From the IMG/VR virus record IMGVR_UViG_3300020442_003143, positions 1 to 25,491 of that record: a stretch of 25,491 nucleotides of DNA; one strand, written 5' to 3'. The notes under the pieces were generated by a model. The model was not told the DNA's origin, made no database searches, and was given only the letters and a program-made list of their open reading frames with translations. Both the position numbers and the translations under genes were made by a program. The DNA comes from a virus. Taxonomy: Duplodnaviria; Caudoviricetes. Shown here in pieces: positions 1,161-25,248 of the stretch. Position 1 is the stretch's first letter; the number at the start of each line of letters is the position of its first letter.

Positions 1161-1562
1161 ATGGCTATAAATCGGATATCAAGGGCATTTAAGGACATAA
1201 GTTTGTCTTTTTCACCCCATCCAGTCACAAAAGATCTTACAATTCTCAAAAATGAGAATGCAATTAAGAAATCTGTAAGAAATTTAGTACAAACAATCCC
1301 AACTGAGAGGTTTTTTAACTCAGCACTGGGTTCTGAGGTACGAAATAGCCTATTTGACTTCGTAGATTTTGGTACTGCGTCTGTTATACAGAACCAAATT
1401 GAAATAACACTTGAAAATTTTGAACCTAGAATAGATAATGTAGTTGTTGAGGTTGAACCTAGACCAGATTTGAACGAATTTGAGGTTACGGTGTTCTTTG
1501 ATATTGTTGGACAAGAAATTCCTACACAAGAATTCACATTCATGCTCGAAGCAACAAGATAA
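1161..1562 (+). CDS. g25: Baseplate wedge subunit / sheath initiator gp25 (GPW_gp25 family)
   Basis: 133 aa; FKDISLSFSPHPVTKDL...NENAIKKSVRNLVQTIPTERFFNSALGS...LENFEPRI are typical gp25 motifs. Confidence 0.95.
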   Translation: MAINRISRAFKDISLSFSPHPVTKDLTILKNENAIKKSVRNLVQTIPTERFFNSALGSEVRNSLFDFVDFGTASVIQNQIEITLENFEPRIDNVVVEVEPRPDLNEFEVTVFFDIVGQEIPTQEFTFMLEATR

Positions 1563-3485
1563 ATGCCTTTTACTAAGTTTACAAACCTCGATTTTGACCA
1601 AATCAAGACTTCAATCAAGGATTATATCCGTGCAAACTCGGATTTTACCGATTTTGACTTTGAAGGGTCAAATTTTTCCGTTTTAATCGATACTTTAGCA
1701 TATAATACGTATATTACAGCATTTAACTCAAACATGATTGTAAATGAGTCGTTTTTAGACTCTGCTACAGTGCGTGAAAATGTTGTTTCACTTGCTCGAA
1801 ACGTTGGATATGTTCCAAGATCAAGAACAGCTGCACAAGCAACCATTTCTTTCGATGTTACAACAAGTGGTAATACACCAACTCTGACTTTACAACCAGG
1901 ATTAGTCTGTGTTGGTACAAGTAATGATTCTTCTTACGTTTTTTCAATTCCAGAGTCGATTACTTCAGTTACAAGTCAATTAACAGATAATGCAGGTAAT
2001 ATAATTTCAAGCACCTCTTCATTTAATGACATCATCGTATATCAGGGAACTTACTTAACAAAAACCTTTACTGTTGACGGATCACTTGATCAAAGATTCA
2101 TACTTGAAAACTCATTTATTGATACTTCAACCATAGTTGTTAAAGTAAGTGGTATCTCTGACACCACTGAGAGAGAATATCGTAAAGTTGATAACATATT
2201 GAATATAACTGACTCTTCTGAAGTGTATTTGATACAAGAGATCACTGATGAGAGATATGAGTTGCTTTTTGGTGATGGTGTTTTTGGTAAAAAGATAGAT
2301 AACGATGCTGTAATCACAGTTTCTTATATTGTCACAGATGGTGTAGAAGGAAACGGTCCTGCATCGTTTACCTATGCAGGTAGTGTAGTGTCATCTTCAA
2401 ATCAAATTCAATTACCTTCTACTACACCATTAATTACAACGGTCTCAGCGGCATCTAACGGAGGCAACATCGAGTCAATTGACTCTATTAAGTATTTTGC
2501 ACCTAGACTCTATTCATCACAGTACAGAGCTGTTACAGCAAGGGATTATGAGTCAATAATACAAACAATTTATCCTAATACAGAATCAGTTTCAGTCGTT
2601 GGTGGTGAGGAACTTGATCCTCCTGAGTTTGGAACAGTATCAATTACCATAAAACCAAAAAATGGTGAATTTGTGTCAGACTACGATAAAACAATAATTT
2701 TATCAAAATTAAAAAGTTATTCATTAACAGGTATCAATCAGAAAATTTTAGATCTAAAGTTATTATATGTTGAACTTGAGTCGTATGTGTACTATGATCC
2801 TTCTAAAGTCAGTACTGTATCAAATTTAAAAAGTAAAATTATAAACGGTTTGACAACGTACAGTCAGTCAACTGATCTTAATAAATTTGGTGGTAGATTC
2901 AAGTATAGTAAAGTTATAAATGTTATTGATAAAATTGATGATGCAATATCATCGAACATAACTCGTGTGATCATACGAAGAAATCTAAAAGCAATTACAA
3001 ACACATTTGCACAGTATGAATTATGTTATGGTAATAGATTTCATATAAATCCTGCAGGAAGAAATATTAAAAGCACGGGATTTACAATTCAAAATCAAAC
3101 TGACACCGTATATTTCACAGATATACCGAATAAAACTCTAAGTGGTAGTTTAGATGGAAGTGGAAAGGGAGTTATAGCTGTGGTTAAAGGTGATGGAGAT
3201 CAACTTGTAGTATCATCCGCTGGGGTCGTTGATTATATTCATGGTGAAGTTATTTTAAATACAATTAACATAACATCAACTGAAAAATCGAACAATATTA
3301 TTGAAATTCAAGCATTTCCAGAATCAAATGATATTTTAAGTTTAAAAGACTTATATCTTACATTTGCGGTTGGTGATAGTACGATAAATATGGTTAAAGA
3401 CACTATTACTTCTGGAGAGCAGATATCTGGTGTTGGTTATAAAGTTACTTCAAGTTATTCAAACGGAACACTGATAAGAGGATAA
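1563..3485 (+). CDS. g6: Baseplate wedge subunit gp6
   Basis: 640 aa; LDFDQIK...FTDFDFEGSNFSVLIDTLAYNT...ESFLDSATVRENVVSLARNVGYVPRS, YELLFGDGVFGK and ESIDSIKYFAP...QYRAVTARDYE are T4 gp6 / Baseplate_J signatures. Confidence 0.96.
   Translation: MPFTKFTNLDFDQIKTSIKDYIRANSDFTDFDFEGSNFSVLIDTLAYNTYITAFNSNMIVNESFLDSATVRENVVSLARNVGYVPRSRTAAQATISFDVTTSGNTPTLTLQPGLVCVGTSNDSSYVFSIPESITSVTSQLTDNAGNIISSTSSFNDIIVYQGTYLTKTFTVDGSLDQRFILENSFIDTSTIVVKVSGISDTTEREYRKVDNILNITDSSEVYLIQEITDERYELLFGDGVFGKKIDNDAVITVSYIVTDGVEGNGPASFTYAGSVVSSSNQIQLPSTTPLITTVSAASNGGNIESIDSIKYFAPRLYSSQYRAVTARDYESIIQTIYPNTESVSVVGGEELDPPEFGTVSITIKPKNGEFVSDYDKTIILSKLKSYSLTGINQKILDLKLLYVELESYVYYDPSKVSTVSNLKSKIINGLTTYSQSTDLNKFGGRFKYSKVINVIDKIDDAISSNITRVIIRRNLKAITNTFAQYELCYGNRFHINPAGRNIKSTGFTIQNQTDTVYFTDIPNKTLSGSLDGSGKGVIAVVKGDGDQLVVSSAGVVDYIHGEVILNTINITSTEKSNNIIEIQAFPESNDILSLKDLYLTFAVGDSTINMVKDTITSGEQISGVGYKVTSSYSNGTLIRG
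3383..3390 (+). promoter_or_regulatory. Candidate late promoter GATAAATA inside the g6 3' end
   Basis: NATAAATA ending about 97 nt upstream of the gp7-like start at 3487. Confidence 0.5.
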
Positions 3486-3486
3486 T

Positions 3487-6400
3487 ATGATAACAACTGG
3501 AATTGATAAGAGAGTCAAAGTCCAACAGATAATTGAAAATCAAATCCCTGAATTTCTATTATCTGAAAGTCCTAAAGCAGTTGATTTTTTAAAACAATAT
3601 TATATCTCCCAAGAATATCAAGGGGGAGTAATTGATCTTACTGATAATTTAGATCAGTATATTAAATTAGATAATTTAACTCCAGAGGTTGTAGTAGGAG
3701 AAACTACACTAACAAGTGGTATCACAACATCTGCAACAATAGTAAATGTTAGTAGTACTAAGGGATTTCCTAAAGAATATGGATTATTTAAAATTAATGA
3801 CGAAGTAATAACATATACAGGATTAACCACTAATACATTCACTGGATGTATAAGAGGATTTAGTGGTATCACTTCATATCATGCGATAAATCAACCAGAA
3901 GAACTTGTATTCACAGATTCCACTGCAACTAATCATGAGACAGATACAACAGTTATAAATCTAAGTGCATTATTTTTAAAAGAATTTTACAAAAAAACAA
4001 AGTCAACTTTAACACCAGGATTAGAGAATGTTGATTTTGTTAATAATTTAGATGTAAGTAATTTCATAAAAAATTCAAAATCATTATATCAATCAAAGGG
4101 AACAGAAGAGTCATTCAGAATATTATTTAATGTCTTATATAATGAAACTCCAAAAGTAATTGATTTAGAAGAATATTTAATTAAACCATCATCAGCCGAG
4201 TATATAAGAAGAGAAATAGTCCTTGCTGAAGCAATAACTGGAAATCCAACCAAATTACTTGGTCAAACAATTATAAAATCTACCGATATTAATACAAGAG
4301 CACCTATCGCAGCTTCTGTATCTGAAATTGAACCACTAACAAGAGGTGAAAAAGTTTATTACAAATTAGGACTATTTGTTGGTTTTAATGATAGAGATCT
4401 TATTGAAGGTACCTTTACAATACCAGGAATAACAAAATCAATAACTGATGTTTCGGTAGGTTCAAGTGTAATAACTGTTGATTCTACAGTTGGTTTTGCA
4501 GCAACTGGATTTGTAGTATCTGGAATCAATACAAACATTTATTATGGTAGCAAATCTTTGAATCAATTCTTTGATTGTGAAAATATTATATCACCAATAT
4601 CTGCAACTGATGATGTTAGGTCTGATGAATTTTATTATGGATATGAAAACGGTGATTTATCAAAAAAGGTAGAATTACGACTAACAGGTGTATTATCAGA
4701 TTTTGAACCTACATCTGATATAAGACTTTTAACTGAAGGTGAAAAAATTACAGTAAAAAATGTTGGTGAAAAGATAACCGATCCACTTTTAAACAAATCT
4801 AGAAAACAAATATTTGCAAATTCATGGATTTATAATACTTCTTCAAGATTTAAAGTCAGTAGTATAAACGGAAATAATTTTGTTTTATTTACAAGTGATA
4901 TTGATAAATCTAGTATAAAAGTAGGTGATGGAGTACAAATACTTTTTAGAAATGAAGAAAACGTAGCAGGAACAGGAGTTGTTAAAAGTGTTAGTTCATC
5001 CACAAAGACTATTGACTTAGATCCATTAAGTAGTGTGAGTGGTGGGTCATTTACTGTTGATCCAAATAGAGACTATGATATTAGAAGATCTATAAAAACT
5101 GCAAGTAGTTCTACGGTTGATATTGAATTTGGCAATAACGTCTTAACAGCAGATACAACGAATGTATATAATGATTCTGATGAGAATATGTATGTTGCTT
5201 CTAATTCTCTACCATCTTATACAATTACTGCATCTATACCTCAATCAATTTTACCAAATGCAACTGGAAATATTGATTTACAAGGTTATAATCCAAGCAC
5301 ATTAAAATTTAGTGTTATATCGTTTCCATCTAATGTAAATTTCATAACTGGTGATGAAATAACATACACTGCTCAAGGAACTATTATTCCAGGTTTGGTA
5401 GAGGGATCATATTTTGTAGAAGTTTTAAGTTCTAAAAATCAAATTCGTTTATATAAATCTAGATCATTTATTCCAATAGCAGACTTTGAAGAATTTGAGT
5501 CTTTACCTTTAAATACAGGAACACATACTTTTTCTTTAGTCGGCACTGTAAATCAAAAGATAGGTGCTCAGAAAATTTTAAGAGAATTTCCATTAGAACC
5601 AAATATTGTAAGTTCTAATAATGAAAAGACTCTGCCAGGAACAACAGGACTTCTAATTAATGGTGTTGAAATACTTAATTACAAGTCTAATGATAAAATA
5701 TATTTTGGACCGTTAGAAAGTATAAAAGTATTAAATGGTGGTTCTAATTATGATGTTTTAGTACCTCCAACATTAGAAGTATCCTCACCATCTTCTGGAG
5801 GCACAAGAGCGTTAGTTCAACCTGTTGTTGTAGGAGAAGTAACTGATATTCAAATTGATCCACAGGATTTTGATATACAAAAAGTTCTATCAGTAACTAT
5901 CGAAGGAGGAAATGGATCTGGTGCAGTATTTGAACCAATATTATCAAAAAGAAAAAGAGAAATATCTTTTGATGGAAGATTAATTTCTCAATCAGGTGGT
6001 ATTGATAACATTAATGAGACTTTAACATTTTTAACTGATCATCACATATCGAGTGGTTTACCTCTAATTTATGATAGTAATGGTAATAATCCTTTAGGTG
6101 TTGGAACAGTTGGAAATGATGGAACATCAGTTGTTGGACTTGGAACAACTACCTTAGTTAATAGTGCTACATATTATCCTTTAGTTGTTAATTCAAATAC
6201 TATTAAATTATTTCAAAACATCAACGATTATAACACTGGAATTAACACCGTTGGTTTCACTACTTTTAATAAAGATGGTATTCATAAATTTAAATTATTT
6301 AAAGAAGAAAAAACACTCAAAAATATAAAAATATTAGATGGTGGTTCTAATTATCAGAATAGACAATTATTTGTAAAACCCACAGGAATTAATACCAGTA

Positions 6401-9400
6401 ACAATACAATTAATTTTGTAAATCATGGTTTTTCAACTGGTGACAAAATAGTTTATTCTAATAATGTTGGACTTGGATCTACTCAACCTCAACAGATATC
6501 TGGTTTGAGCACTTATACAGGAATTACAACAACATCAGTTTTATATAATGTCTTATCTATTGATGACAATTCATTTAGAATAACAAATGCAGGATTGGGT
6601 GGGACATCTCTAGATAATTATGATAGATTAAATTATGTCAAATTTTCAGATCAAGGAACTGGTTATCAAGTTTTTAAATATCCAGATATAAAATTAAATT
6701 TAAAATATGAATTAGCAAATACTAATGTTGGTGTCATAACAGCAACTCCTGTCGTTAGAGGTTCAATTGATGATTTATACTTATATGAAGATGGAAGTGG
6801 ATATGGTTCTGATATATTAAATTTAGAAAAACCTGTTAATGTTACTAGGAAAATTGGTAAAGATGCAGAACTTAAACCGATAATTTCAAATGGTTCAATA
6901 AGTTTTGTTGAGATCCAATCAAAAGGGCAAAATTATCAATCTCCACCAGATTTAGAGGTAGTTGGTATTGGCACTGGTCTAGGTGCTAAATTAAGAGCAG
7001 TTGTTGAAAATGGAAAAATTATAGACGTTGTTATATTAGAGGGTGGATTACAATATCAAGAAGACACAACATCAATTGTAGTTAAATCACCAGGCAGTGA
7101 ATTGAAGGTTGATACTAAAATAAGAAGTTTATTTACTAATTCCTTTGACAGATATGGTAGTGAGGCATTAATTGAGTCTCAAGAAAAATTAAAATATACA
7201 TTAGTCGGATATTCTACACAAATTGGAAATGATGCATTTGGTGATGATGGTATAGAACACTCACCTATAATTGGTTGGGCTTATGATGGAAATCCTATTT
7301 ACGGTCCTTATGGATATAGTGATCCATCAGATGAAAATTCAGCAATAAGACGTTTAGATTCTGGATATGAACTTGATACATCTAATATTATCGACAGACC
7401 TTCGACATTTAGTTCTGGATTCTTTATTGATGATTATGTTTTTAATAATGTTGGTGATTTGGATATTCATAACGGTAGATATGGTAGAACACCTGAGTAT
7501 CCAAATGGAACATATGCATATTTTGTTGGTATTACTTCAATTTCACTACAACCTAAATTTCCATATTTCATCGGAAATACTTATAGATCAAATCCAGTTA
7601 TTGACAATTATAAATTAACACAAAAAGATTTTAATATTGAAGATTCAAATCTTATAAGAAATACATATCCTTACAAAGTTTCAGATCAATTTGCAGATAA
7701 TGATTTTATAGTTGAATCAAATGAAATATCAAAACAAGTATCTGTAGTTGAATCAACTACTTTTGGATCTGTAAATTCAATACAAATTATAAATGATGGA
7801 GATAATTATCGAGTTACTAATTCTGCAGAATTTGATAACACAGGAACTGAGGGTGGTGGTTTAAGTGTTTCAGTTGATAGTATAAAAGGAAAGACTATAA
7901 ACTCAATTGATACAACTATTAATTCTTATGAAAACGTTGTATTTTTTAAAAATGAGAGTGGTGAAATATCTGCCTCAATATCAACAGCTCCATCACTCAA
8001 TAATGGTGATAGAGTAGTTATCTCTGGATTGAGCACAACATTATTACCAGATTTGAATGGTTCATTTATTATTGGAATAGAAACTGCAAGAAGTATTGTA
8101 TATCAAGAAATTCCCAATTCTACTACAACTGGTATTGTTACTGACATTTATTTGTCAAAAATACCAAGTAATATATCAGTAGGAAGTAGCATAGGAATCG
8201 GAACTGAAAAATTATTAGTTCTTAATACTTTTAATCAAAATAATATACTTAGAGTTAGAAGAGGTGAGTCCTCTGGAGTTCATACAGTAGGGACTGGTAT
8301 AAATCTAATTCCAAGTATTTTTAGTTTAGATAATACTGGATTTGGAGTCACTGATATCAAATCTAAATTAAATGATCAGGTATTTTTTAATCCTCATGAA
8401 TCAATCGGTGTAGGAACAGTTGTTGGTTTAGGATCAACTGCTTTTTCAACTCTTGGAAATCTCAAAAAAGTAGTTTCGACTCCACTCCAAAGTATAAGAT
8501 TACCAAATCATCCATTCGTAACAAATCAAAGAGTTACTCTAACTAAACCGAGTGCTGGATATGCTTTAACAGTATCTGATGATGATGGTGTAACCACATT
8601 TAATATTCCAGAGTCTGGGAATAGTCAAGATATTTTTATAATTAATAAATCTGATAACTTTGTAGGTATAGTAACACAAGTTGGACTAACAACTAACACG
8701 AGTGGATTATCCTTTGTTGGTGATACAAAAATTGGATCAAGTAGTTTTGAATATTCACTAAAAAGTAATTTTGAGCAATTAACTGGTAAATTACAAAGGA
8801 TACATGCACAAGTATCTCTATCAACAGCACACAATTTATCAAATAATGAGATAATTGATTTAACTGTAACACCAAATCAATCAGTTGGAATTGGTACATC
8901 AACTTCTGTTGATGTTAGATATGATGAGTTAAATGATATTCTACTTATTAATACAAAAACATGTTCATCTAGTGGAATTACAAGTTCAACAAACAATATT
9001 AATATAACATCTCACGACTTTGAATCAGGTGATAAAATTTATTATTCTTCATCTTCACCTTCAGAGGGTTTATCTGATAAAAATTCATATTTTATATTTA
9101 AAGTAGATGATGATAATTTTAAACTTGGAGAAACTTTATCAGATGTTGTTAATGATCCAATCAGAATTATTGAACTTTCATCAACTGGTGGTACACATGA
9201 ATTTTCATTAATCAATCCAAGAATAGAGATAATTAAAAATAATAACTTAGTTTTTGGTGTTGGTCACTCATCATTAGAAAATTTTGAATTTAAAATATTT
9301 CACGATCAAAACTTTAAAAATGAATTTGTCTCTACAGGAACAACTAATACATTTCAGGTTTCTGGAGTTGGAACAGTTGGTGTTACTTCAACTGCAACAG

Positions 9401-12400
9401 TTACTCTCAGTTTTTATGAAGATAATCCTGATATTCTATATTATAATGTACAAAAAAGTGGATATATAAGCACATCCGATACTATTGATGTAGTCAATCC
9501 ATCATCCATACAATATGCAAATAGTGTTTATGGTGGTGAATTTGAAGTATTTGACATAATCGGACTGGGTTCTACAATATTTAATATTTCTCTACCAGAA
9601 GTACCTGAAAAATTATCTTATAATGCAACAGAAACAAGTAAATTATCATACTCAACTAAATCTCGTAATGTTTCAGGTCCAATAGACAAAGTAAAAATTA
9701 ATTATGGTGGCACTGGATATAAAAGTTTACCATCTTTTGTAAGTATTGCATCAACACAAGGAACAAACGCCACATTATTACCCGACTCAACCACTATAAA
9801 TCGTATTAATAATGTTAGAATTTTAAATCCAGGTTTTGAATATTCCTCAGACAATACACTTAAACCAGAAGCTTTTGTAGCACCTATTATATCAATCATA
9901 GATTCAAATACAATAACAAAAGTTGAAGTTTTATCTGGTGGAAAAAATTATACCACTGAACCAGATTTAGTTATTGTAAATCCTGATACTGGGTTACAAG
10001 ATACATCAGGATCAGTTGAGGCAACGATAAATGGTAGTGCGGTGGTTGATGCGTCAATTATTGTTCCATCAAGAGGTTTAAAATCAGTTACTCATGAAAT
10101 ATTTGCACTTAATAATAGTAATGGAGCAACTATAAAAACAGTTGAATTTAATCCATCTACAGGTATTGTAACTTGTACTTTAGTCACACCTATATTAGGT
10201 TTTAGTACTGCACCATTCTCTGTTGGTGAAGAGATATTTGTTGAAGGTATACAACAATATACTCACTCAAGTTTAACACCAGGTGATGGTTTCAATTCTG
10301 AGGATAATGGATTTAAATTCTTTAAAATTACTTCGATGGTGAATAATAATCCAGCAACTGTTGAATTTGATTTATCAACATTTACAAGTAATGCTGGTAT
10401 TGCAAAAACAAATCAAAATTCATTTGCACAAATTATTAGCAAAGATGATTATCCAGTCTTTTCAGTAACACAAAAAATATTTAATTTTGTAGTAGGAGAA
10501 AAAATATCTGCATTTATTGGAGACTCATTTACTCCAGTTGAATTATCAATATCAGAATCTACTGACGAATTTATAAAAATTGTTGAAGATCAACCTGGTG
10601 CGTTTGATTTGGTTGCAGGTCAAAGAATAAGAGGATCAAACAGTGGTAATATAGCCACAATAAATCAAATATCTAAAAATACAGGACAATTCAAAATTGA
10701 TTATTCTCTAAAAGAAAATCAAGGTTGGAGAAATGATATTGGAAAATTAAATCAAGATTATCAAGTTTTGCCTGATAATGATTATTATCAAAATTTATCA
10801 TATAGTGTAAAAAGTTCAATAACTTTTGATGATTTAATAAATCCCGTAAATAGACTGTTACATACAAGTGGACTGAAGAATTTTGCTGATGTTGGTATTC
10901 AATCTGCTACTAGTGCTGGTATTACAACATCAACCTTCCTTGATACAGTCGCACTTGATATCATAGATCAAAAACGTGTAGACACAATTAATAATTTTGA
11001 TTTTGCTTTAGATATTGATACTGTTAATAATAAATCTAAATTCTTAAAATTAAAAAATACAAAACTGTCACCTTATATTGAATGTAGATCAAATCGTGTA
11101 TTAGAAATAGATGATATTAGTCCTTTATTCTCCAATACCTCTACTACATTAACAAAGTTTTTAGATATTCCAATTAATACAAATTATGCAAAATATTTAA
11201 TTCAAGTAAGAAATCCATTTAACAAAAATGTCCAACTATCTGATATTGTTTTATTTAAAGATGAAAACGATGTATTTACAGCAGAAAAAACAAGTATTCA
11301 TAATACTGCGTCGGATTTAGGTGATATTGAGTTCCAAATGGACTCTGCAGGTTTGATAAGTTTGATATTTACACCTGATGATGCAGATAATAATGATTAT
11401 GATATAAAAATATTCCAAAATACGTTCAATACTGATTTAACAGGTATTGGTACACAAACTATTGGATTTGTAAATTTAATAGGAAGTAATAAAATTGTAT
11501 CGTCTGGATCAACTTCAGAAATAGTTTCTGGAAATACTGGAAACATAGACGCATTCTTCGTATCAGCTGAAGTAAAAGATCCAACAACAACTGAAACTAA
11601 TTTTGTTGAATTGTATGCTACTCATGATGGTACAAATACATTTTTATCTGAATTTTTAACTGATTCAGAAGAGTCTGTAGTTTCCAATTTCATAGGTAGT
11701 TTCACATCAGGAATATCAACTGGTGTATTTTCATTAAGTTTTGAAAATGATGAAGCTAATGAGGTATTTGTTAGATCATCAATTATTGGAATAGGCACTA
11801 CATCTACAGGAATAGGTACGTATAGATTTAAATCTACAGGTCAAATTGATGGCACTGAAAAAACAGTTAGGTTTGAGTCAAATTATGTAAACGTATCAGC
11901 TGCAACAACTATATCATCCTTCTTACATGAAGAAATATCAAGTTTCAAGAGTATAGTAAGAGTTTCAAGTGGTTCTACTAGTGCATTACATCAAGTATTG
12001 GTTGCACATAATGAAACTGATACACATACAACTCAATATCCATTTTTATCAATCGGAAGCACATCGGGTATAGGTACATTCTCATCGACATTAGTTGGAA
12101 ATGATTTGAACTTTAATTTCCATCCAGATCCAGATTATACTGGTGGAACAAACAGTGTTCAAGTTCAAGTATTAAGTAAAGCATTCTATACAGATATTGA
12201 TTTATTAAATATTCCACTTGATTTACAATATGGAACAGTTACTGAATCTTTATCTCTTGCACAGTATGATGCAATTAATGGATCAAGATCAAACAAAACT
12301 AACTTCTTATTACAAAGCAATACGATACCAATATTTGAGAAAAAATTTGATCCATCAACATCATTAAATTTAGGGACAGGAGAATTTACTGTTATTGACC

Positions 12401-15400
12401 ATTTCTTTGAAAGTGGTGAAAAGATAATATATTCACCAGGTTCAACATTTACAGGTGCTACAGTTACAGGTATTGCGACTGCAGGTGGGACTTTGGCATC
12501 AGGAACTGAATTATTTGCAATCAAAAAACCACAGAATAAGGATGTATTTCAAGTTGCAAAAACTCGTGCTGATGCATTAGCTGGAATACCATTAATATTT
12601 ACAAGTGCTGGTGCAGGAAATTATCATGAATTTGAAATGTCTAAAAAGAATGAAAAGGCACTCATATCTATTGATGGTGTAATACAATCACCTATTGCTT
12701 TCACACCTATATCAACCACACTTGAGTTTAATATTACAGACAGTCAAACAATTTTCAGTGTTGCAGGTATTTCTTCAATAACAACGGGAGATACAATAAA
12801 AATTAACGATGAATATATGAAGATTACAAATGTTGGTTTAGGAACAACATCTGTAGGTCCAATCACAGAAAGTGGTGATGTTAATATTCTAGAAGTAGAC
12901 AGGGGATATATTGGATCTGCTGCAACTAATCATAGTGCGAGTGATATAACCAGATTATATTCAGGTAGTTATAATATTGTTGATAGTAGAGTTCATTTTA
13001 CTGAAGCACCAAGAGGTACAAATCAAAGTGGTAGAACTCCATCAAATTTAGATCCAATAAGATCAACATTTAACGGAAGAGTTTTCTTAAGAAAAGATTA
13101 TACAAAAAATATTATATTTGATGACATATCTGATAGTTTCAACGGAATTGATCAATCATACAGAGTTAAAGTTGAAGGTGCAGATACAGTAGGAGTTAAT
13201 ACTGGTAGTAGTATTTTGTTGTTAAATGGTATATTCCAAACACCAACTACATTCAATAATTTGGGAAATAATTATAACTTCAGTGAGATAGGTGGCACAG
13301 CGACAGATGTTATATTTACAGGTATTACCTCATCTAATGGTAGTTTGATTGTAAGTGACACTGATGTAAATCAAAATCAATTACCAAGAGGTGGTGTAAT
13401 CATATCATTAGGTTCAACAGGAGGATTAGGAGTTGCACCATTAGTCGGAGCAAAAGTTGTACCAAATGTTGGAGCAGGAGGAAGCACGATTGCTGGAGTT
13501 GTGGGTATAGCTACCACAGGAAGTTCATATGGCATAAGCACTGCATCATATAATAATATTACTGGTGAATTACAAGTCACAACCTCAAGTAATCATGATT
13601 TTGGAAATATAAATGAATTTGTAAGATTAGATGGTCTAACGTTTAATCCTGCTTTGACAATACCTAATGATAGATCATTTGGATTGACTGGAATATTATC
13701 TGCAACAACATTTAGTGTAAGTATAGGTGCAAGTAATCAAAGTCATGCGTATGTTGGATCTGGAACTGCTTTTGAATATCTACATGATCTAACATTTGGT
13801 TCTGGTTATAGAAATCCTGTATCAGTTGCTGTTACTGATTTAAATGGTACAGGTTCGGGTGCTGATATATCTGCTGTAGCTGGAGATGGTGGAGTATTAT
13901 CCTTTACAATTAATAATAATGGTACAGGATACACAAAACCTCAAATTCAAGTTTCATCACCCTCATACTCTAATCTACCTGTAACTGGGGTTTCAAGAAG
14001 AGGTATTGGCAATACAACAGATACTGGTAATGGTGCATCTATTACAATAGATGTTGGTGCAGCTAACACTGCAGTTGGTATTGGATCAACTCTATTCACA
14101 GTTACGAATTTTGTATTAGAAAATAATGGATACAATTTCAAAGTTGGTGATGTATTCAAACCTGTTGGATTAGTAACAGCTATTGGAGTCACTACTATGA
14201 CTGACTTCAATCTTACAGTTTTAGAAACATTTAATGATCAGTATTCCTCATGGAATTTTGGACAATTTGACTTTATTGATTCAATTAAAGATCTTCAAGA
14301 TGGTTCAAGAACTAGATTCCCAATAATATACAATTCAAATTTACTTAGTTTTGAAATAGATGAAAATAATCCAGAATCAGCTTTAATCAATCTCGATTCA
14401 TTATTACTCATCTTTATTAATGGAGTTGTTCAAAATCCAGGTGAAGCATATACATTTGAAGGCGGTACATCATTTACATTTGCACAACCTCCCGATGCAT
14501 CTGATGTCATAGATATATTTTTCTATAAAGGAACAGAAGGTGTAGATGCTGTTCAGGTTTCAGCTGGTTCATCAGTCGCACCTACAATAAAAGTTGGTGA
14601 CTCAGTTCAAGTTATCAAAAATTCAGGAATCACTACAACACAAAAACCAAGAGTGATTTATGGTATAAATGCATCAGATGAAGTTGAAACAAATTTATAT
14701 AATGGTATTGGTATTGATGAAAGAAACTTTAAACCATTTAGTTGGACTAAACAAAAAATTGATAAGAAAATAAATGGAGAATTGGTATTTAAAACAAGAG
14801 ACTCAATTGAGGCTTTAGTTTATCCTACTGCTAAAATTATATCTGATGTTGGTGTAGGAGATACCATCTTGTATCTTGATAATGCATCATTCTTTAATTA
14901 TGAAGAGGACTTTTCAAGTTTAAATATAGGAGCAGTTGGTGGAATAATTATTGAATCAACAGATTTAGTTGCTGCTGGCTTGACTGCGATTGTATCTGCT
15001 GCTGGAACTATTCAATCATTAGATATTACAAATTCTGGTAATGGATATGTTGGTTCTGCAGTTACTGTTTCAATCGCTGCACCTGCAACAAACAATTATT
15101 ATGCAATTACAACATCTACTACACCACCTGTTGGGTTAGCAACAGCAAGTGCTACAGTAACAATATCAGGTGGTCGTCTAAATACAGTTACGATTACTAA
15201 TCCTGGTTTTGGTTATACTCAAACAAAACCACCTCAAGTTCTTGCTCCTTCTCCAACTTTAAACAAAGAGGATATTGATTTAATAACCACAGTTGAGGGA
15301 TTTGATGGTGATATTATTGGTATAGCGGTAACTGATGGTGTTGGAGGTAATCCTCTTGCACTTGAATTTAAATTAAATGCAGATTTAGGATCAGGTTCAG

Positions 15401-15813
15401 GTAATCCATCCGCAACACTAACTGACTTAAAAGTTGGATATCCAATCTATATTTTTGATACACAGGTTGGACATGGTGTTACTTCTGTTTATAGTGATGG
15501 TGCAGTTGTTGCTACTGGAACTACCTGTGTTGATAATATCTACTTTGTAGATCAATTTAATGCAGGAGTTGGTATCATAACATGTAATATCATGACTGGA
15601 GTAAATACCACTGGTATAGATACTTCTGTTGGACTCGGAACTGCTATTGGTGGATTTTCATGGGGTCGATTAACTAATTTCAATAGATCTAATGCTATTT
15701 CTATTGGAGTTACAGGTAAAACACATTACTCTGGTATTTCAAGTTATCCAACTATCCAGAGAAGAGATTTCGGACTTAGAGACAGTGGTGCTTTAAGAAA
15801 GGATCTTGGCTAG
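3487..15813 (+). CDS. g7: Giant baseplate wedge initiator gp7-like mosaic structural protein (4108 aa) with a YHYH-like domain and several repeat families
   Basis: Lies between g6 and g8. N-terminal QIPEF...FLKQYY and LYQSKGTEESFRILFNVLY plus central DNDYYQNLSYSVKS...LLHTSG match gp7-type motifs. HSPIIGWAYDGNPIYGPYG...GDLDIHNGR..TPEYPNGTYAYF is YHYH-domain-like. Confidence 0.85.
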   Translation: MITTGIDKRVKVQQIIENQIPEFLLSESPKAVDFLKQYYISQEYQGGVIDLTDNLDQYIKLDNLTPEVVVGETTLTSGITTSATIVNVSSTKGFPKEYGLFKINDEVITYTGLTTNTFTGCIRGFSGITSYHAINQPEELVFTDSTATNHETDTTVINLSALFLKEFYKKTKSTLTPGLENVDFVNNLDVSNFIKNSKSLYQSKGTEESFRILFNVLYNETPKVIDLEEYLIKPSSAEYIRREIVLAEAITGNPTKLLGQTIIKSTDINTRAPIAASVSEIEPLTRGEKVYYKLGLFVGFNDRDLIEGTFTIPGITKSITDVSVGSSVITVDSTVGFAATGFVVSGINTNIYYGSKSLNQFFDCENIISPISATDDVRSDEFYYGYENGDLSKKVELRLTGVLSDFEPTSDIRLLTEGEKITVKNVGEKITDPLLNKSRKQIFANSWIYNTSSRFKVSSINGNNFVLFTSDIDKSSIKVGDGVQILFRNEENVAGTGVVKSVSSSTKTIDLDPLSSVSGGSFTVDPNRDYDIRRSIKTASSSTVDIEFGNNVLTADTTNVYNDSDENMYVASNSLPSYTITASIPQSILPNATGNIDLQGYNPSTLKFSVISFPSNVNFITGDEITYTAQGTIIPGLVEGSYFVEVLSSKNQIRLYKSRSFIPIADFEEFESLPLNTGTHTFSLVGTVNQKIGAQKILREFPLEPNIVSSNNEKTLPGTTGLLINGVEILNYKSNDKIYFGPLESIKVLNGGSNYDVLVPPTLEVSSPSSGGTRALVQPVVVGEVTDIQIDPQDFDIQKVLSVTIEGGNGSGAVFEPILSKRKREISFDGRLISQSGGIDNINETLTFLTDHHISSGLPLIYDSNGNNPLGVGTVGNDGTSVVGLGTTTLVNSATYYPLVVNSNTIKLFQNINDYNTGINTVGFTTFNKDGIHKFKLFKEEKTLKNIKILDGGSNYQNRQLFVKPTGINTSNNTINFVNHGFSTGDKIVYSNNVGLGSTQPQQISGLSTYTGITTTSVLYNVLSIDDNSFRITNAGLGGTSLDNYDRLNYVKFSDQGTGYQVFKYPDIKLNLKYELANTNVGVITATPVVRGSIDDLYLYEDGSGYGSDILNLEKPVNVTRKIGKDAELKPIISNGSISFVEIQSKGQNYQSPPDLEVVGIGTGLGAKLRAVVENGKIIDVVILEGGLQYQEDTTSIVVKSPGSELKVDTKIRSLFTNSFDRYGSEALIESQEKLKYTLVGYSTQIGNDAFGDDGIEHSPIIGWAYDGNPIYGPYGYSDPSDENSAIRRLDSGYELDTSNIIDRPSTFSSGFFIDDYVFNNVGDLDIHNGRYGRTPEYPNGTYAYFVGITSISLQPKFPYFIGNTYRSNPVIDNYKLTQKDFNIEDSNLIRNTYPYKVSDQFADNDFIVESNEISKQVSVVESTTFGSVNSIQIINDGDNYRVTNSAEFDNTGTEGGGLSVSVDSIKGKTINSIDTTINSYENVVFFKNESGEISASISTAPSLNNGDRVVISGLSTTLLPDLNGSFIIGIETARSIVYQEIPNSTTTGIVTDIYLSKIPSNISVGSSIGIGTEKLLVLNTFNQNNILRVRRGESSGVHTVGTGINLIPSIFSLDNTGFGVTDIKSKLNDQVFFNPHESIGVGTVVGLGSTAFSTLGNLKKVVSTPLQSIRLPNHPFVTNQRVTLTKPSAGYALTVSDDDGVTTFNIPESGNSQDIFIINKSDNFVGIVTQVGLTTNTSGLSFVGDTKIGSSSFEYSLKSNFEQLTGKLQRIHAQVSLSTAHNLSNNEIIDLTVTPNQSVGIGTSTSVDVRYDELNDILLINTKTCSSSGITSSTNNINITSHDFESGDKIYYSSSSPSEGLSDKNSYFIFKVDDDNFKLGETLSDVVNDPIRIIELSSTGGTHEFSLINPRIEIIKNNNLVFGVGHSSLENFEFKIFHDQNFKNEFVSTGTTNTFQVSGVGTVGVTSTATVTLSFYEDNPDILYYNVQKSGYISTSDTIDVVNPSSIQYANSVYGGEFEVFDIIGLGSTIFNISLPEVPEKLSYNATETSKLSYSTKSRNVSGPIDKVKINYGGTGYKSLPSFVSIASTQGTNATLLPDSTTINRINNVRILNPGFEYSSDNTLKPEAFVAPIISIIDSNTITKVEVLSGGKNYTTEPDLVIVNPDTGLQDTSGSVEATINGSAVVDASIIVPSRGLKSVTHEIFALNNSNGATIKTVEFNPSTGIVTCTLVTPILGFSTAPFSVGEEIFVEGIQQYTHSSLTPGDGFNSEDNGFKFFKITSMVNNNPATVEFDLSTFTSNAGIAKTNQNSFAQIISKDDYPVFSVTQKIFNFVVGEKISAFIGDSFTPVELSISESTDEFIKIVEDQPGAFDLVAGQRIRGSNSGNIATINQISKNTGQFKIDYSLKENQGWRNDIGKLNQDYQVLPDNDYYQNLSYSVKSSITFDDLINPVNRLLHTSGLKNFADVGIQSATSAGITTSTFLDTVALDIIDQKRVDTINNFDFALDIDTVNNKSKFLKLKNTKLSPYIECRSNRVLEIDDISPLFSNTSTTLTKFLDIPINTNYAKYLIQVRNPFNKNVQLSDIVLFKDENDVFTAEKTSIHNTASDLGDIEFQMDSAGLISLIFTPDDADNNDYDIKIFQNTFNTDLTGIGTQTIGFVNLIGSNKIVSSGSTSEIVSGNTGNIDAFFVSAEVKDPTTTETNFVELYATHDGTNTFLSEFLTDSEESVVSNFIGSFTSGISTGVFSLSFENDEANEVFVRSSIIGIGTTSTGIGTYRFKSTGQIDGTEKTVRFESNYVNVSAATTISSFLHEEISSFKSIVRVSSGSTSALHQVLVAHNETDTHTTQYPFLSIGSTSGIGTFSSTLVGNDLNFNFHPDPDYTGGTNSVQVQVLSKAFYTDIDLLNIPLDLQYGTVTESLSLAQYDAINGSRSNKTNFLLQSNTIPIFEKKFDPSTSLNLGTGEFTVIDHFFESGEKIIYSPGSTFTGATVTGIATAGGTLASGTELFAIKKPQNKDVFQVAKTRADALAGIPLIFTSAGAGNYHEFEMSKKNEKALISIDGVIQSPIAFTPISTTLEFNITDSQTIFSVAGISSITTGDTIKINDEYMKITNVGLGTTSVGPITESGDVNILEVDRGYIGSAATNHSASDITRLYSGSYNIVDSRVHFTEAPRGTNQSGRTPSNLDPIRSTFNGRVFLRKDYTKNIIFDDISDSFNGIDQSYRVKVEGADTVGVNTGSSILLLNGIFQTPTTFNNLGNNYNFSEIGGTATDVIFTGITSSNGSLIVSDTDVNQNQLPRGGVIISLGSTGGLGVAPLVGAKVVPNVGAGGSTIAGVVGIATTGSSYGISTASYNNITGELQVTTSSNHDFGNINEFVRLDGLTFNPALTIPNDRSFGLTGILSATTFSVSIGASNQSHAYVGSGTAFEYLHDLTFGSGYRNPVSVAVTDLNGTGSGADISAVAGDGGVLSFTINNNGTGYTKPQIQVSSPSYSNLPVTGVSRRGIGNTTDTGNGASITIDVGAANTAVGIGSTLFTVTNFVLENNGYNFKVGDVFKPVGLVTAIGVTTMTDFNLTVLETFNDQYSSWNFGQFDFIDSIKDLQDGSRTRFPIIYNSNLLSFEIDENNPESALINLDSLLLIFINGVVQNPGEAYTFEGGTSFTFAQPPDASDVIDIFFYKGTEGVDAVQVSAGSSVAPTIKVGDSVQVIKNSGITTTQKPRVIYGINASDEVETNLYNGIGIDERNFKPFSWTKQKIDKKINGELVFKTRDSIEALVYPTAKIISDVGVGDTILYLDNASFFNYEEDFSSLNIGAVGGIIIESTDLVAAGLTAIVSAAGTIQSLDITNSGNGYVGSAVTVSIAAPATNNYYAITTSTTPPVGLATASATVTISGGRLNTVTITNPGFGYTQTKPPQVLAPSPTLNKEDIDLITTVEGFDGDIIGIAVTDGVGGNPLALEFKLNADLGSGSGNPSATLTDLKVGYPIYIFDTQVGHGVTSVYSDGAVVATGTTCVDNIYFVDQFNAGVGIITCNIMTGVNTTGIDTSVGLGTAIGGFSWGRLTNFNRSNAISIGVTGKTHYSGISSYPTIQRRDFGLRDSGALRKDLG
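5721..6354 (+). repeat. 31-nt imperfect direct repeat pair (5721-5751 and 6324-6354) within gp7
   Basis: tataaaagtattaaatggtggttctaattat vs tataaaaatattagatggtggttctaattat: 29/31 identical, 603 nt apart, same frame. Confidence 0.7.
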
Positions 15814-15839: not shown

Positions 15840-17399
15840 ATGGCTGCTATTGTAACTGATCAATTTAGAATTCTAAATGCAAATAATTTTGTAGAGACAA
15901 TAGATGACTCTACAAACTCATATTATGTTGTGGTTGGTCTCGCTAATCCATCTTCACCTGTAGTGGGTTTTGGTAGAAGTTCAGACTGGAACACAGAAAC
16001 TCCTAACCCAATAGATAATTTAAATTACACTAATCATATTGGTGACACCACAATTTTTGGTAAGAAAGTAACATCAGATAATGTAAGAAGATTAATAACT
16101 AGAAGAAATTGGACTCAAGGTACAAAATATGAGATGTATCGTCATGATTACAGTTTAAAGAGTCCATCACCTGTCACAGGTTCTTCAAGATTATATGATT
16201 CAAGTTATTATGTAATGAATCAAAACTTTGACGTTTATATTTGTATTGATAATGGGTCTAGTGGTATAAGTACAACAGGTAATGCATCACAAGATGAACC
16301 AGTATTTACAGATCTTGAACCATCAAGAGCAGGTGAAAGTGGTGATGGTTATATTTGGAAGTACTTATTTACAGTCCCACCTAGTGATATAATAAAATTT
16401 GATTCTACTGAATACATTTCAGTTCCCAGTGATTGGCCAACTGCAACTACTACTCAAATTCAGTCTGTTAGAGAGAATGGTGATTCAACTGTAAATAATA
16501 ATCAAATAAGAAAAGTTTATATTGATAAACAAGGATTTGGATATACACAGAACCAAACTGGAGTTGAAGTTAATATAATCGGAGATGGTACTGGAGCAAA
16601 AGTTGTTATTGACACTGATAGTCAAGGAAAAATAATAAAAACTAATGTTTCATCAGGTGGTCAAGGTTATACTTACGGTATGGTTGATCTTGGAAGTTTA
16701 GGTAATCCAACAACAAGAGCAAAATTAATTCCTATAATCCCTCCATCTAGAGGTCATGGATTTGATTTATACAAAGAGTTGGGCACTGATAAATTACTAG
16801 TATACGCAAGATTTGATGATTCCACAAAAGATTTTCCTACTGATACAAAATTTGCTCAAATTAGTATCATAAAAAATCCAACATCAATTGGATCAACTGC
16901 GGTTTTCACTGAAAATCAATTTTCTTCTGTAAATGCAATCAAAGTTATATCACCAACAGGAACACCAGTTATAGGAGAAAAAATAGAGCAAACAGTAACT
17001 GGAGGCACAGCATTAGGTTATATTGTTTCTTATGACACTGATACTAATGTTATTAAGTATTATCAAGATAGATCTTTAGTATTCAATCAAACAACAGGCG
17101 ATCAAACAGATTACGTTGGTGTAACTACAAACTCTAAAATATTGGATTTTGTATCTAGTGCTGATAAAATTATTGCTCCAACAAGTGGATTTTCTGCATC
17201 AGTAGACCAAAATTTTAGTGGAATTAGCACAAATCCGACTGGAAACAAAGTTATTTCATTAGGAGTTAACTTTACAAATGGTCTTGCTAATCCAGAGATA
17301 AATAAAAAGTCGGGTGAAGTAATTTACTTAGATAATAGACCTTTAATTACTAGAAACTCTAGACAAAAAGAAGACATCAAAATCATCTTGGAATTTTAA
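15840..17399 (+). CDS. g8: Baseplate wedge subunit gp8
   Basis: 519 aa; MAAIVTDQFRILNANNF, WTQGTKYEMYRHD, YYVMNQNFDVYICIDN, GDGYIWKYLFT and C-terminal SGEVIYLDNRPLITR...QKEDIKIILEF are gp8 signatures. Confidence 0.93.
   Translation: MAAIVTDQFRILNANNFVETIDDSTNSYYVVVGLANPSSPVVGFGRSSDWNTETPNPIDNLNYTNHIGDTTIFGKKVTSDNVRRLITRRNWTQGTKYEMYRHDYSLKSPSPVTGSSRLYDSSYYVMNQNFDVYICIDNGSSGISTTGNASQDEPVFTDLEPSRAGESGDGYIWKYLFTVPPSDIIKFDSTEYISVPSDWPTATTTQIQSVRENGDSTVNNNQIRKVYIDKQGFGYTQNQTGVEVNIIGDGTGAKVVIDTDSQGKIIKTNVSSGGQGYTYGMVDLGSLGNPTTRAKLIPIIPPSRGHGFDLYKELGTDKLLVYARFDDSTKDFPTDTKFAQISIIKNPTSIGSTAVFTENQFSSVNAIKVISPTGTPVIGEKIEQTVTGGTALGYIVSYDTDTNVIKYYQDRSLVFNQTTGDQTDYVGVTTNSKILDFVSSADKIIAPTSGFSASVDQNFSGISTNPTGNKVISLGVNFTNGLANPEINKKSGEVIYLDNRPLITRNSRQKEDIKIILEF
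17297..17304 (+). promoter_or_regulatory. Candidate late promoter GATAAATA inside the g8 3' end
   Basis: NATAAATA ending about 99 nt upstream of ATG 17403. Confidence 0.5.
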
Positions 17400-17402
17400 G
17401 AA

Positions 17403-20400
17403 ATGGCTCAAAAAACGAATTTAAATATAAGTCCTTATTATGATGATTATGATAAGAGTGATCAATTTTATAAAGTCTTGTTTAAACCTGGATTTCCAGT
17501 TCAAGCTAGAGAATTAAGCACTTTACAATCAATTCTTCAAAATCAAGTTGAATCATTTGGAACTCATATGTTTAAAGATGGTTCGATGGTCATACCTGGT
17601 GGTATAGCATATGATCAAGAATATTATTCGTTAAAAATAGAAGAAGAGCATTTGGGAACACCTGTTACTTTATATCTTAATGAACTTATAGGGTTGAGAC
17701 TTAAGGGTGAAACAACTGGTAATATTTTATCAATTGATAATTTTGAATATCCTTCAGATAATGCAGATCTCACTAATCTTACCATATATGTAAAATTTTT
17801 AGAGGCGGGTGATGACAATTCAACAAATGGTTTAGCAGAAGGTGAGAATTTAATTGTAGAAGAAACATTTTCTTATGGTAATACAATCATTAATGCAGGA
17901 CAATCTGTATTGAATTTAATAGAAAGTGAAGATGCCTTTACAGTTGGATCTGCTGTTGGTATATCCGAGGGTGTTTATTTTATTAGAGGTAATTTTGTTC
18001 AAGTTAATAGTGAAAAAATTGTTTTAGACCCATATGATAATGAACCTTCATACCGAGTTGGACTAAGTATTGATGAGCAATTAATATCAGCAAAGGATGA
18101 TGATTCATTATATGATAATGCTAGAGGATTTTCAAATTATGCTGCACCAGGTGCTGATAGATTAAAGATAAAAACAACTTTAACAAAGAAAGCACTCACT
18201 GATTTTAACGATACAAATTTTGTTGAATTAATTAGATTAGATGAGGGTACAATAAAACTGACAGCAGATAAAACTGATTATAATTTAATAAAAGATTATT
18301 TTGCAAAAAGAACTTATGAAGAATCTGGTAATTACAGTTTAAATCAATTTGAAGTTGATGTTTTTAATTCTCTTAATGATGGTATTTCTGGAGATGGTGT
18401 TTATAGATCGAATGAGTTAACTCAACAAGGTAATATACCTGATGATGATATATTGTGTGTTAAAGTATCATCTGGTAAAGCATACGTTAAAGGATATGAT
18501 ATTGAACTTGAGTCATCTCAACTTATTGATAATGTTAAACCAAGGGATAAGCAGATAGTTGATTCAGCTTTAGTTCCGTATCAAATGGGAACTATTTTTA
18601 AAGTAAATCATGTTGCTGGTGTACCTGCACCTAATATTAATGATAATACTGCATTAGTAGAACTTTATAATAAAAGAGTTAGTGCAGATGATCAAAAACA
18701 AGGTGATAAGATTGGAGAGGCAAGAGTATATTCATTTGCAGTATCTGATGCTGCATACACAGGAGATACAACAGAGTGGGATTTACACTTATTTGATGTT
18801 CAAGTATTTACAAAGATTGAATTAAATAAATCAGTCACAAACACTGAAGTTCCTCTTACATCTTTTGTTAGAGGAGTAAGCAGTGGTGCTACAGGATATG
18901 TTTCCATAGTTTACAGTGGAACTGAGTGTATTTACTTAAGTGAAGTCACAGGTCAGTTCATGGCAGGTGAACAACTAATCATAAATGAGGATACTTCTTT
19001 TACTAGATCAATAAGAACAGTTGAAGCTTTTGGTATACAAGATGTAAAAGGTATTTTTCAAAATACTTCTGCTGTAACTGGTTATGCAGTTAGTTTTACA
19101 TCTGATACTGTTTTAAATCGAGTAATTAGTCCAAACTTTAGTAATGCTGATAAGATAACAATCACAGGTGCTGGTGCGACAACAAATGGAAGTTTCAATT
19201 TTGTGGGTATAAACACAGGAACTATTTTAAGATATACACCTGAAGGAGAAACAGTTGAAAGATTTAATCGTATTGAAACGGTATCTGGAGATGGGTTAAG
19301 TGTTACTTTATCTGCAGTTCCTACAATTACTGGCATATGTAATGGTGCTTTAAACTCAAATAAAATAAGCACTACCTTTGCTTTTGGTGTGCCAAATATA
19401 AATATTGAAGATAATAAAGGATTATATGCTGAAATAGATAATAAAAATGTTTCAGATATAAACTTAGATGCATCAACATTATTAGTAGGAAAAAATATAA
19501 CTGCTGAGAGCACTGATGGGTCTGGTGTATTAACATTTAATTTATCTGCAAGTGGCATATCAAGTGCATTTTATGAGAGTTTTGATGAAGAGAGATATTC
19601 TGTTCATTATAGTGATGGAAGTATAGAGGATTTAACCTCTGATCAGTTTGTTTTGAGTGCTGATGGACAAACTGTTACAATAAATGGATTAGAAACAAGT
19701 GAAAATAATATAACTGTAAGTGCTACCCTTAAGAAACAATCATTAAAGAGTAAACAAAAAGAATATGTAAGAAGTCAAAAAATTGCAGTTGAAAAAACAG
19801 CAGTTGGAATTAACACAGCTTTGACTGGAATGGAGATAAGTAAAAATTATGGTCTTCGTGTTGAAGATAAGGAAATATCATTAAATGTGCCAGATGCAGT
19901 AAAAATCATAGGTGTTTATGAGTCACTTAATTCATTATCACCCACTTTAGATAAATTTACTTTCCCATCTGGATTATCGTTGAATACAGAATCAATATTA
20001 GGAGAAAAAATAATCGGTTCTGATACGGGAGCAGTCGGACAAATTGTTACTAGAAATTCAGCTACTGAGATTGAAATATCAATTTTATCATCAAATGCAT
20101 TTAGTATTGGTGAAATAATTACATTTGAAGAATCAAATATAACAACTACCTTACAGGATATAACATTCGGTAATCACTTAAATATTACAAATAGATATGA
20201 GTTGGATAAAGGTCAGAGAGAGGAGTTCTATGATTATTCAAGAATTGTAAGAAGAAAAGATTTTTCACCAGCATCTAGAAAACTTTTAATAGTTTATGAT
20301 AGATATGACGTTCCTTCTGGAGATAGAGGTGACTTCTATACAGTTGCTTCATATACCCAAGAGAGATTTGGTAAAGATATTCCACACTTAAAAGATGGAT

Positions 20401-24909: not shown

Positions 24910-25248
24910 ATGGCAGTTTACGTAAGTAATCTAACTGTTAATACTGGAACTACATTTTCTCAAATTTTTACTTTAGAAAGTGCAGCTACTAATTCTGCTA
25001 CGGATTTGACTGGTTTTACTGCTTCTGCACAGATGCGTAAGCATCCTGGCAGTAGTTCAGCAACTAATTTTCAAACCTCAATTATTAATGCAGCAGGTGG
25101 AAGGATAAGAGTTGGTTTAACAACAAGTCAAACAGCAGCTTTAAAACCTGGTAGATTCATGTACGATGTTCTAATTACAGATACATCGGGTGAAGTAACT
25201 AGAGTTTTAGAGGGTGCTGTTTTAGTTAGAGAGGGAGTGACAAAATAA
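24910..25248 (+). CDS. Small virion structural protein, probable beta-sandwich (BppU N-terminal-like), 112 aa
   Basis: NLTVNTGTTF...DLTGFTASAQMRK...LTTSQTAALKPGRFMYDVLI...RVLEG pattern, common in phage tail and baseplate adaptor proteins. Confidence 0.75.
   Translation: MAVYVSNLTVNTGTTFSQIFTLESAATNSATDLTGFTASAQMRKHPGSSSATNFQTSIINAAGGRIRVGLTTSQTAALKPGRFMYDVLITDTSGEVTRVLEGAVLVREGVTK

Follow-up and report, generated by a model that had tools for sequence, protein, structure and literature searches.

In one cyanophage clade, the baseplate, sheath, neck, fiber, and capsid proteins are marked by a short dispersed motif, G-[ILVFM]-small-[T>S], which we propose, with a probability of roughly 0.55, to be an O-glycosylation sequon whose Thr or Ser receives its first sugar from an A197-like enzyme of the phrog_1574 family. 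The window, i.e., the whole analyzed stretch of 25,491 nt (IMG/VR record IMGVR_UViG_3300020442_003143), is the baseplate region of a T4-like marine cyanophage, with genes for gp25, gp6, a gp7-like protein (hereafter gp7), gp8, and a VrlC-like protein (Table 1). The best relatives of its gp7 among GenBank phages are found in S-SRM01, S-SKS1, and P-SSM2 (41–46% identity). The gene that the first-pass annotation of this DNA had described as glycosyltransferase-like, ending at base 147, is indeed the end of a phrog_1574 gene, and a phrog_1574 gene is also located directly upstream of gp25 in P-SSM2 and S-SRM01.

Table 1. Genes of the window and their matches to the motif G-[IVL]-[GSTAN]-[TS].
Feature	Position	Strand	Remarks
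phrog_1574 glycosyltransferase, C-terminal 48 codons	1..147	+	E 1.2e-19; contig start cuts gene
Baseplate wedge gp25	1161..1562	+	Motif absent
Baseplate wedge gp6	1563..3485	+	1 motif (base 2847), chance level
gp7-like baseplate wedge protein, 4108 aa	3487..15813	+	45 motifs, first at base 3718, last at 15733
Baseplate wedge gp8	15840..17399	+	3 motifs (bases 16263, 17118, 17220), in variable stretches
VrlC-like virion protein (DUF4815, phrog_358)	17403..24668	+	7 motifs, weak excess
112-aa LtfC-like beta-sandwich protein	24910..25248	+	Pfam match under curated cut-off; 1 motif (base 25114), chance level

The motif was scored as G-[IVL]-[GSTAN]-[TS], for which about 45 matches had been counted in gp7 by hand and about 7 predicted from composition. 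Both figures hold: the protein contains exactly 45 matches, 33 ending in T and 12 in S, whereas 1000 whole-protein shuffles yield 7.79 ± 2.77 with a maximum of 19. Local shuffles within blocks of 100, 50, and 20 residues give expectations of 8.1, 8.5, and 9.5, and an artifact of composition is ruled out by both kinds of shuffle. The DNA under the 45 sites consists of 45 different 12-base words; hence, the motif does not stem from a DNA repeat. The sites are irregularly spaced and occur in unlike contexts, in agreement with the earlier statement that they do not form a tandem repeat. The further matches reported in gp8, the VrlC-like protein (six named, seven present), and the 112-aa protein all exist, but taken singly they are weak against shuffles in gp8 (3 vs. 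0.73 expected, reached by 30/1000 shuffles) and the VrlC-like protein (7 vs. 3.09, 38/1000) and at chance level in the 112-aa protein (239/1000); the single match in gp6 is likewise at chance level (621/1000). Since the pattern was picked on gp7 itself, its replication in relatives weighs more.

An excess of 2.5- to 8.2-fold is seen in every one of 102 related gp7 fragments with a length of 1000 aa or more; the fragments were selected for similarity to gp8 or the enzyme and are therefore all near relatives rather than independent cases. In an unbiased scan of patterns of the same shape, GI.T ranked first in five of seven clade genomes and second and fifth in the other two, and it was never among the top five in eight outside genomes or in S-TIM5. 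A total of 16 whole phage genomes were compared (that of S-H38 is short of its last 224 bases). The genome-wide ratio of observed to expected matches is 2.29–3.61 in all seven Kyanoviridae with phrog_1574 and 0.77–1.15 in all eight without it. Thus, equal density in phages lacking the enzyme, which had been named as evidence against a recognition signal, was not observed, and the excess is confined to carriers among these 15 Kyanoviridae. The gp7 protein has 35 matches (7.1 expected) in the carrier S-SRM01 and none (4.4 expected) in the non-carrier S-CAM4. Among orthologs shared by both groups, the observed/expected numbers in carriers and non-carriers are 29/7.7 vs. 2/7.8 for the sheath, 9/1.1 vs. 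2/0.7 for gp13, 17/5.2 vs. 7/6.7 for gp8, 52/21.8 vs. 21/16.1 for VrlC, and 7/2.9 vs. 0/3.1 for the capsid protein. In the same comparison, no motif was found in the tail tube, gp15, or terminase of carriers, and no excess in gp6 or replication proteins. The prohead protease (13/1.2 vs. 11/1.0) and NrdA (10/2.6 vs. 9/2.7) were set aside as clade signals, since their matches are conserved sites present in both groups. The S-SM2 ORFs named here as sheath, tube, protease, and NrdA are what we take them to be from their sequences, with no tool label.

The proposed co-variation of motif density with glycosyltransferase genes is thus seen in T4-like cyanophages, but only within a single clade. A split with support 1.0 in a ten-gene tree has all seven carriers on the same side; the correlation thus counts as a single evolutionary event, and any gene of that clade would co-vary equally well. 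AG-345-L05, which has GT11 without a close phrog_1574 homolog, was considered as a discordant genome and rejected, since it is a fragment from the clade, begins within VrlC, and carries the motif (80 vs. 43). Among its large fiber-like genes, AG-345-L05 has a second, distant phrog_1574-like gene (29%; MH319754.1, 118864-119523), and ACG-2014f records likewise have a phrog_1574-like gene in two places.

In the 102 gp7 fragments, where counts are inflated by kinship, G is enriched 5.5-fold at the first motif position and every other residue at most 1.5-fold. The second position prefers I (8.4-fold), L (4.1), V (3.4), and F (2.8), the third G (8.4), T (5.7), S (5.3), and A (3.4), with M at 8.1 on only 30 counts, and the last T (7.8), S (3.1), A (2.35), V (1.3), and I (1.1). 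Ahead of the motif, V, A, S, and T are preferred and charged residues disfavored. By these preferences, the motif is strict in its first Gly, and Ser stands in for the final Thr whereas Val does not; the raised Ala at the last position would count against a sequon that needs a hydroxyl group.

Individual sites turn over. Pairs of gp7 proteins at 30–55% identity have only 44–54% of sites in common, and the excess is retained in every fragment despite turnover of about half the sites; kept sites swap residues within classes, and lost sites often go wholesale. The sites of gp8, gp13, gp14, and the sheath lie in gappy alignment stretches and in different columns for each phage, and those of the sheath, gp13, gp8, and capsid arise as point gains or short insertions. 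As far as sequences can tell, the motif demonstrates the features of a sequon, namely enrichment across unrelated proteins, key residues that stay fixed, and sites that come and go.

The same data bear on the alternative that survives best, which we nevertheless consider unlikely: a structural Gly-turn capped by Thr/Ser hydrogen bonds, derived from fiber repeats (GxVGIGT, VSGISTF) and spread by duplication or shuffling, in which case the glycosyltransferases would be baggage of the clade that acts on host LPS or DNA. Such capping would likewise prefer T/S to V, conservation is almost complete at some sites (98% at residue 2861), the carriers form one clade only, and these genes are assigned to host surface or DNA modification in two papers (PMC1079782, PMC12801897). 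S-TIM5, moreover, has the same motif words as fiber repeats without spread elsewhere. However, the motif is depleted in seven beta-rich gp7-like proteins outside the clade (0.51-fold overall, 0.26-fold for G-I), which means that it is not a generally favored turn and makes a generic beta-turn unlikely. The point gains and short insertions noted above also occur in proteins lacking the fiber repeat: a search for a tandem repeat of the GxVGIGT type found single sites in the capsid, gp13, and gp8 and scattered sites in the sheath, with no repeated unit. Finally, the 11 sites in an AlphaFold model of gp7 residues 1490-2060 (pLDDT 85.8) have unlike predicted settings, i.e., hairpin turns, strand ends, long loops, and a short helix, which rules out one repeated position. 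The suggested mapping of motifs on models was therefore decisive on equivalent positions of a single fold but not on exposure in loops, as the last motif residue is in coil in 9/11 sites vs. 76/127 other T/S residues, with no clear difference. A fold search with the same segment found nothing useful in the PDB (best TM 0.18), and the strong matches in BFVD are a clade homolog and unnamed entries.

The capsid carries a site of its own. A G-[LMFI]-G-[TS] pattern is present within a variable stretch of the major capsid protein in all 87 clade members (7 isolates and 80 IMG/VR relatives chosen by 73–95% likeness to S-SM2 gp23, with 84 distinct loops) and in none of eight outside isolates, whereas shuffled loops carry it in 15/87 cases on average and in 23 at most. 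Both Gly residues are invariant and the last residue is T in 84 proteins and S in 3, while the stretch otherwise varies in sequence and length. The narrower pattern used for gp7 matches only 43 of the 80 IMG/VR loops, since F and M are common there. Neighboring positions (Q+3, G+5, N-P) are also well kept; hence, the motif is not the sole constraint on this loop. The clade stretch replaces T4 gp23 135-220 and overlaps the I-domain linker 132-160. According to one description of T4 gp23 (PMC9546572), the I domain and linkers extend onto the outer surface of the capsid, and from this equivalence the cyanophage loop is predicted to face outward. Structure searches found no close solved structure for clade gp8, gp13, or gp23. 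Four of ten long capsid contigs do not contain the phrog_1574 gene, and all four are 18–72% complete. Both the capsid site and the GT11 and GT25 genes discussed below lie outside the window and were absent from the first-pass annotation.

All-against-all BLAST with two reference genomes, P-SSM2 and S-CAM9, identified phrog_1574, GT11, GT25, and a 164-aa Gly/Thr-rich protein as families present in all seven carriers and none of the eight other genomes; a 115-aa protein occurs in 6/7 carriers and 0/8 others, and NDP-sugar epimerases in 6/7 carriers. Pfam GT11 and GT25 each match the same 9 of 19 records, S-TIM5 not among them, and phrog_1574, GT11, and GT25 are all present in 9/9 clade records searched for all three, only phrog_1574 being inside the window. 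The 164-aa protein (S-CAM9, KU686206.1, 134942-135436) contains three motifs and is a candidate decoration protein.

The phrog_1574 enzyme is 67–90% identical across most of the clade (60% in B23), and gp7 is 36–46% identical among its top matches. Across 83 aligned rows, the DSD motif has an invariant D81 with S82 and D83 conserved in at least 90%, and the C-terminal acidic motif has E192 in at least 90% and an invariant D193; the fragment in the window contains the GEDVSFC part of the latter. The sole PDB match of the family profile is STIV A197 (E 2.6e-8). With Pfam GT2 (PF00535), the query itself has no match, whereas 21/83 members match at E ≤ 0.01. A full-length IMG/VR member that shares 97% identity with its P-SSM2 counterpart was modeled (pLDDT 96.6), and Foldseek matched the model first to A197 and then to LH3, COLGALT1, Mnn9, mimivirus R699, GalNAc-Ts, and GlfT2, most of these being protein O-glycosyltransferases, with probability 1.0 for A197, LH3, and COLGALT1. 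A GT-A glycosyltransferase with A197 as its nearest match is thus predicted, and the enzyme is a candidate for initiating a glycan; fold likeness does not fix the acceptor, as Mnn9 and GlfT2 rank too. The neighbors LH3/PLOD3, COLGALT1, R699, and GalNAc-T (E 1e-8 to 1e-5), which act on hydroxylysine or mucin-type Ser/Thr, differ from the model in their extra domains and are only 9–14% identical to it. A197 (PDB 2c0n) is likewise a small stand-alone viral GT-A protein; it is essential, and a role in virion glycosylation has been proposed for it, possibly on the glycosylated STIV capsid protein B345 (review PMC10551542). It differs in coming from an archaeal turrivirus and in its 16% identity to the phrog_1574 enzyme; the available part of that review treats its donor and acceptor as not established and mentions no sequon.

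By every sequence test except independent co-variation, the motif appears to behave like a sequon. The recognition-signal reading of the first-pass annotation gains from the occurrence of sites in unrelated proteins, their turnover, the terminal hydroxyl, and the match with the enzyme in Kyanoviridae, but its link to a glycosyltransferase still amounts to co-occurrence in one clade. Under the O-glycosylation reading, accessible G-hydrophobic-small-T sites would receive a first sugar on their Thr from the A197-like enzyme while the particle is assembled in the host cytoplasm. Extension of the glycan would fall to GT25 and GT11 together with the variable 'LPS' gene islands, and sites would build up wherever a loop tolerates one. 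We infer that the enzyme acts on protein and reads the motif, as well as the residue modified and the order of the enzymes. At somewhat less than even odds, we further suggest that the clade coats its particle with glycans by means of this self-encoded, sequon-directed A197-like O-glycosylation, with one site per capsid subunit, dozens per baseplate protein, and a variable chain built by the 'LPS' islands. The coat may serve to shield the particle from proteases, from grazers, or from sticking to non-host surfaces.

Non-covalent docking, in which the motif would be bound as a short strand-turn by a decoration or chaperone protein specific to the clade, is improbable as well. A binding site would account equally well for the dispersal and turnover of the motif and for its single occurrence in each capsid protein, and the distributions of the 164-aa and 115-aa proteins match that of the motif. 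On the other hand, sites are at times only 3–7 residues apart (GVGTVVGLGS, GLSTYTGITT), one 1294-aa protein has 77 motifs, which is probably too dense for folded binders, the 164-aa protein bears the motif itself, and the strictly co-inherited genes are mostly glycosyltransferases. It is very unlikely that the motif is the target of a different covalent modification, such as phosphorylation, acylation, or addition of phosphoglycerol, or of a host enzyme: the hydroxyl requirement is silent on the group added and unannotated clade-specific genes exist, yet the co-varying set, read by eye, has no kinase-like or acyltransferase-like family, and the strain WH7803 is host to the carrier S-T4 and to the non-carriers S-PM2 and S-CAM1, a pattern that speaks against the host enzyme as sole cause.

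Outside the clade, dispersed motifs recur, but their tie to the phrog_1574 family did not replicate. Distant homologs of the enzyme are found among virion genes in vir323, ctvy9321, S-TIM5, and AG-345-L05, and also on giant-virus contigs. S-TIM5 has a 57% homolog, yet its genome-wide excess is only 1.37-fold, none of its proteins has an excess at p < 1e-3, and multiple matches are mostly fiber repeats; it was therefore rejected as an independent lineage for co-variation. Also rejected were vir323 and ctvy9321, whose distant homologs lie among structural genes with no excess in the 28 and 23 kb covered, and the giant-virus contigs L491 and L492 and contigs L411, L412, and L494, which lack structural context or excess; no VrlC match was found in the records of these five contigs. 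In the 735-kb phage LR756501, which has a 37% homolog, the cyanophage motif is depleted (127 vs. 189). Instead, S-G-x-T is raised at p < 1e-3 in 11/907 ORFs, several of them fiber-like repeat proteins, vs. 0–2 ORFs in each of 16 other phages. The wider [ST]-G-x-T pattern occurs in its large virion-type proteins, e.g., at 252448-256500, 466198-470223, and 617128-619197 of LR756501.1 (10 vs. 0.6, 7 vs. 0.5, and 9 vs. 0.6), and in the relatives L500-L508, being weak or absent in more distant orthologs. In a 1350-aa megaphage protein, with the longest plus-strand ORF of each locus taken as the ortholog, S-G-x-T occurs 4–15 times (0.3–0.7 expected) in the 9 closest of 80 loci; none of the remaining 71 has more than 4.

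This megaphage lineage would suggest that such tags arose more than once. The attempted link of SG-x-T to phrog_1574 failed: the family was found in none of 38 related megaphage contigs, with a positive control run, including the nearly complete motif-bearing relatives G012 and G013, so that a clade-specific Thr motif can exist without it. GT2 genes occur in motif-bearing and motif-free megaphages alike (5/5), and their presence is therefore uninformative. A D-P-Y-G-E-E-x-W-like motif was also observed in approximately 18 unrelated-looking short ORFs within 1-400000 of LR756501.1 (PYGE 27 vs. 0.6). In two lineages, a glycosyltransferase lies beside a small MAINY... gene (S-TIM5, JQ245707.2, 13705-16724; L412, 9965-11219), and that of S-TIM5 is also beside a tail fiber gene, possibly as a mobile fiber-modifying cassette.

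Phage-encoded glycosyltransferases with virion targets are known in the mycobacteriophages Che8, Corndog, and Myrna, where they are described as modifying capsid and tail tube (Freeman et al., 2023, via PMC12363180). The cyanophages differ in that their tail tube lacks the motif and their sites are internal and many, and tblastn with the phrog_1574 enzyme matched no mycobacteriophage record. The 'LPS biosynthesis' clusters of P-SSM2, S-SM2, S-SSM7, and S-SCSM2R contain the same GT11 and GT25, and ORF96 of S-SCSM2R (a 251-aa glycosyltransferase) is probably the phrog_1574 gene. Sugar-gene clusters of the P-SSM2 type have been labeled host-LPS genes since 2005. In published readings they alter the host surface, protect DNA, or serve as stuffer DNA (PMC1079782, PMC12801897), the 2010 comparison by Sullivan leaves their function open (PMC3037559), and the available parts of this literature name no virion substrate or motif. 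No description of the motif or of glycosylated cyanophage virions was found in the main texts of the literature covered, mostly non-subscription papers. The open function of the 'LPS' clusters is now reducible to one experiment on cultured phages and named peptides, above all one capsid peptide. If the proposal is true, a large class of ocean viruses would be glycan-coated, with consequences for their adsorption, grazing, and decay and for the peptides that viral proteomics misses; a short portable sequon with its 250-aa enzyme would be a further gain.

Several minor features of the window are recorded here. An unlisted Lys/Arg-rich frame of approximately 45 aa (MAKTFSMG...RYKGQGK) lies at 290-426 on the plus strand, between a 54-aa ORF and a 226-aa gene. 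The latter (427-1107) matches phrog_3704 'ferredoxin' (E 4e-112) and has no Pfam match, so the label looks doubtful. At 7255-7530, the baseplate protein gp7 contains an internal YHYH domain (residues 1257-1348; PF14240, E 8e-25).
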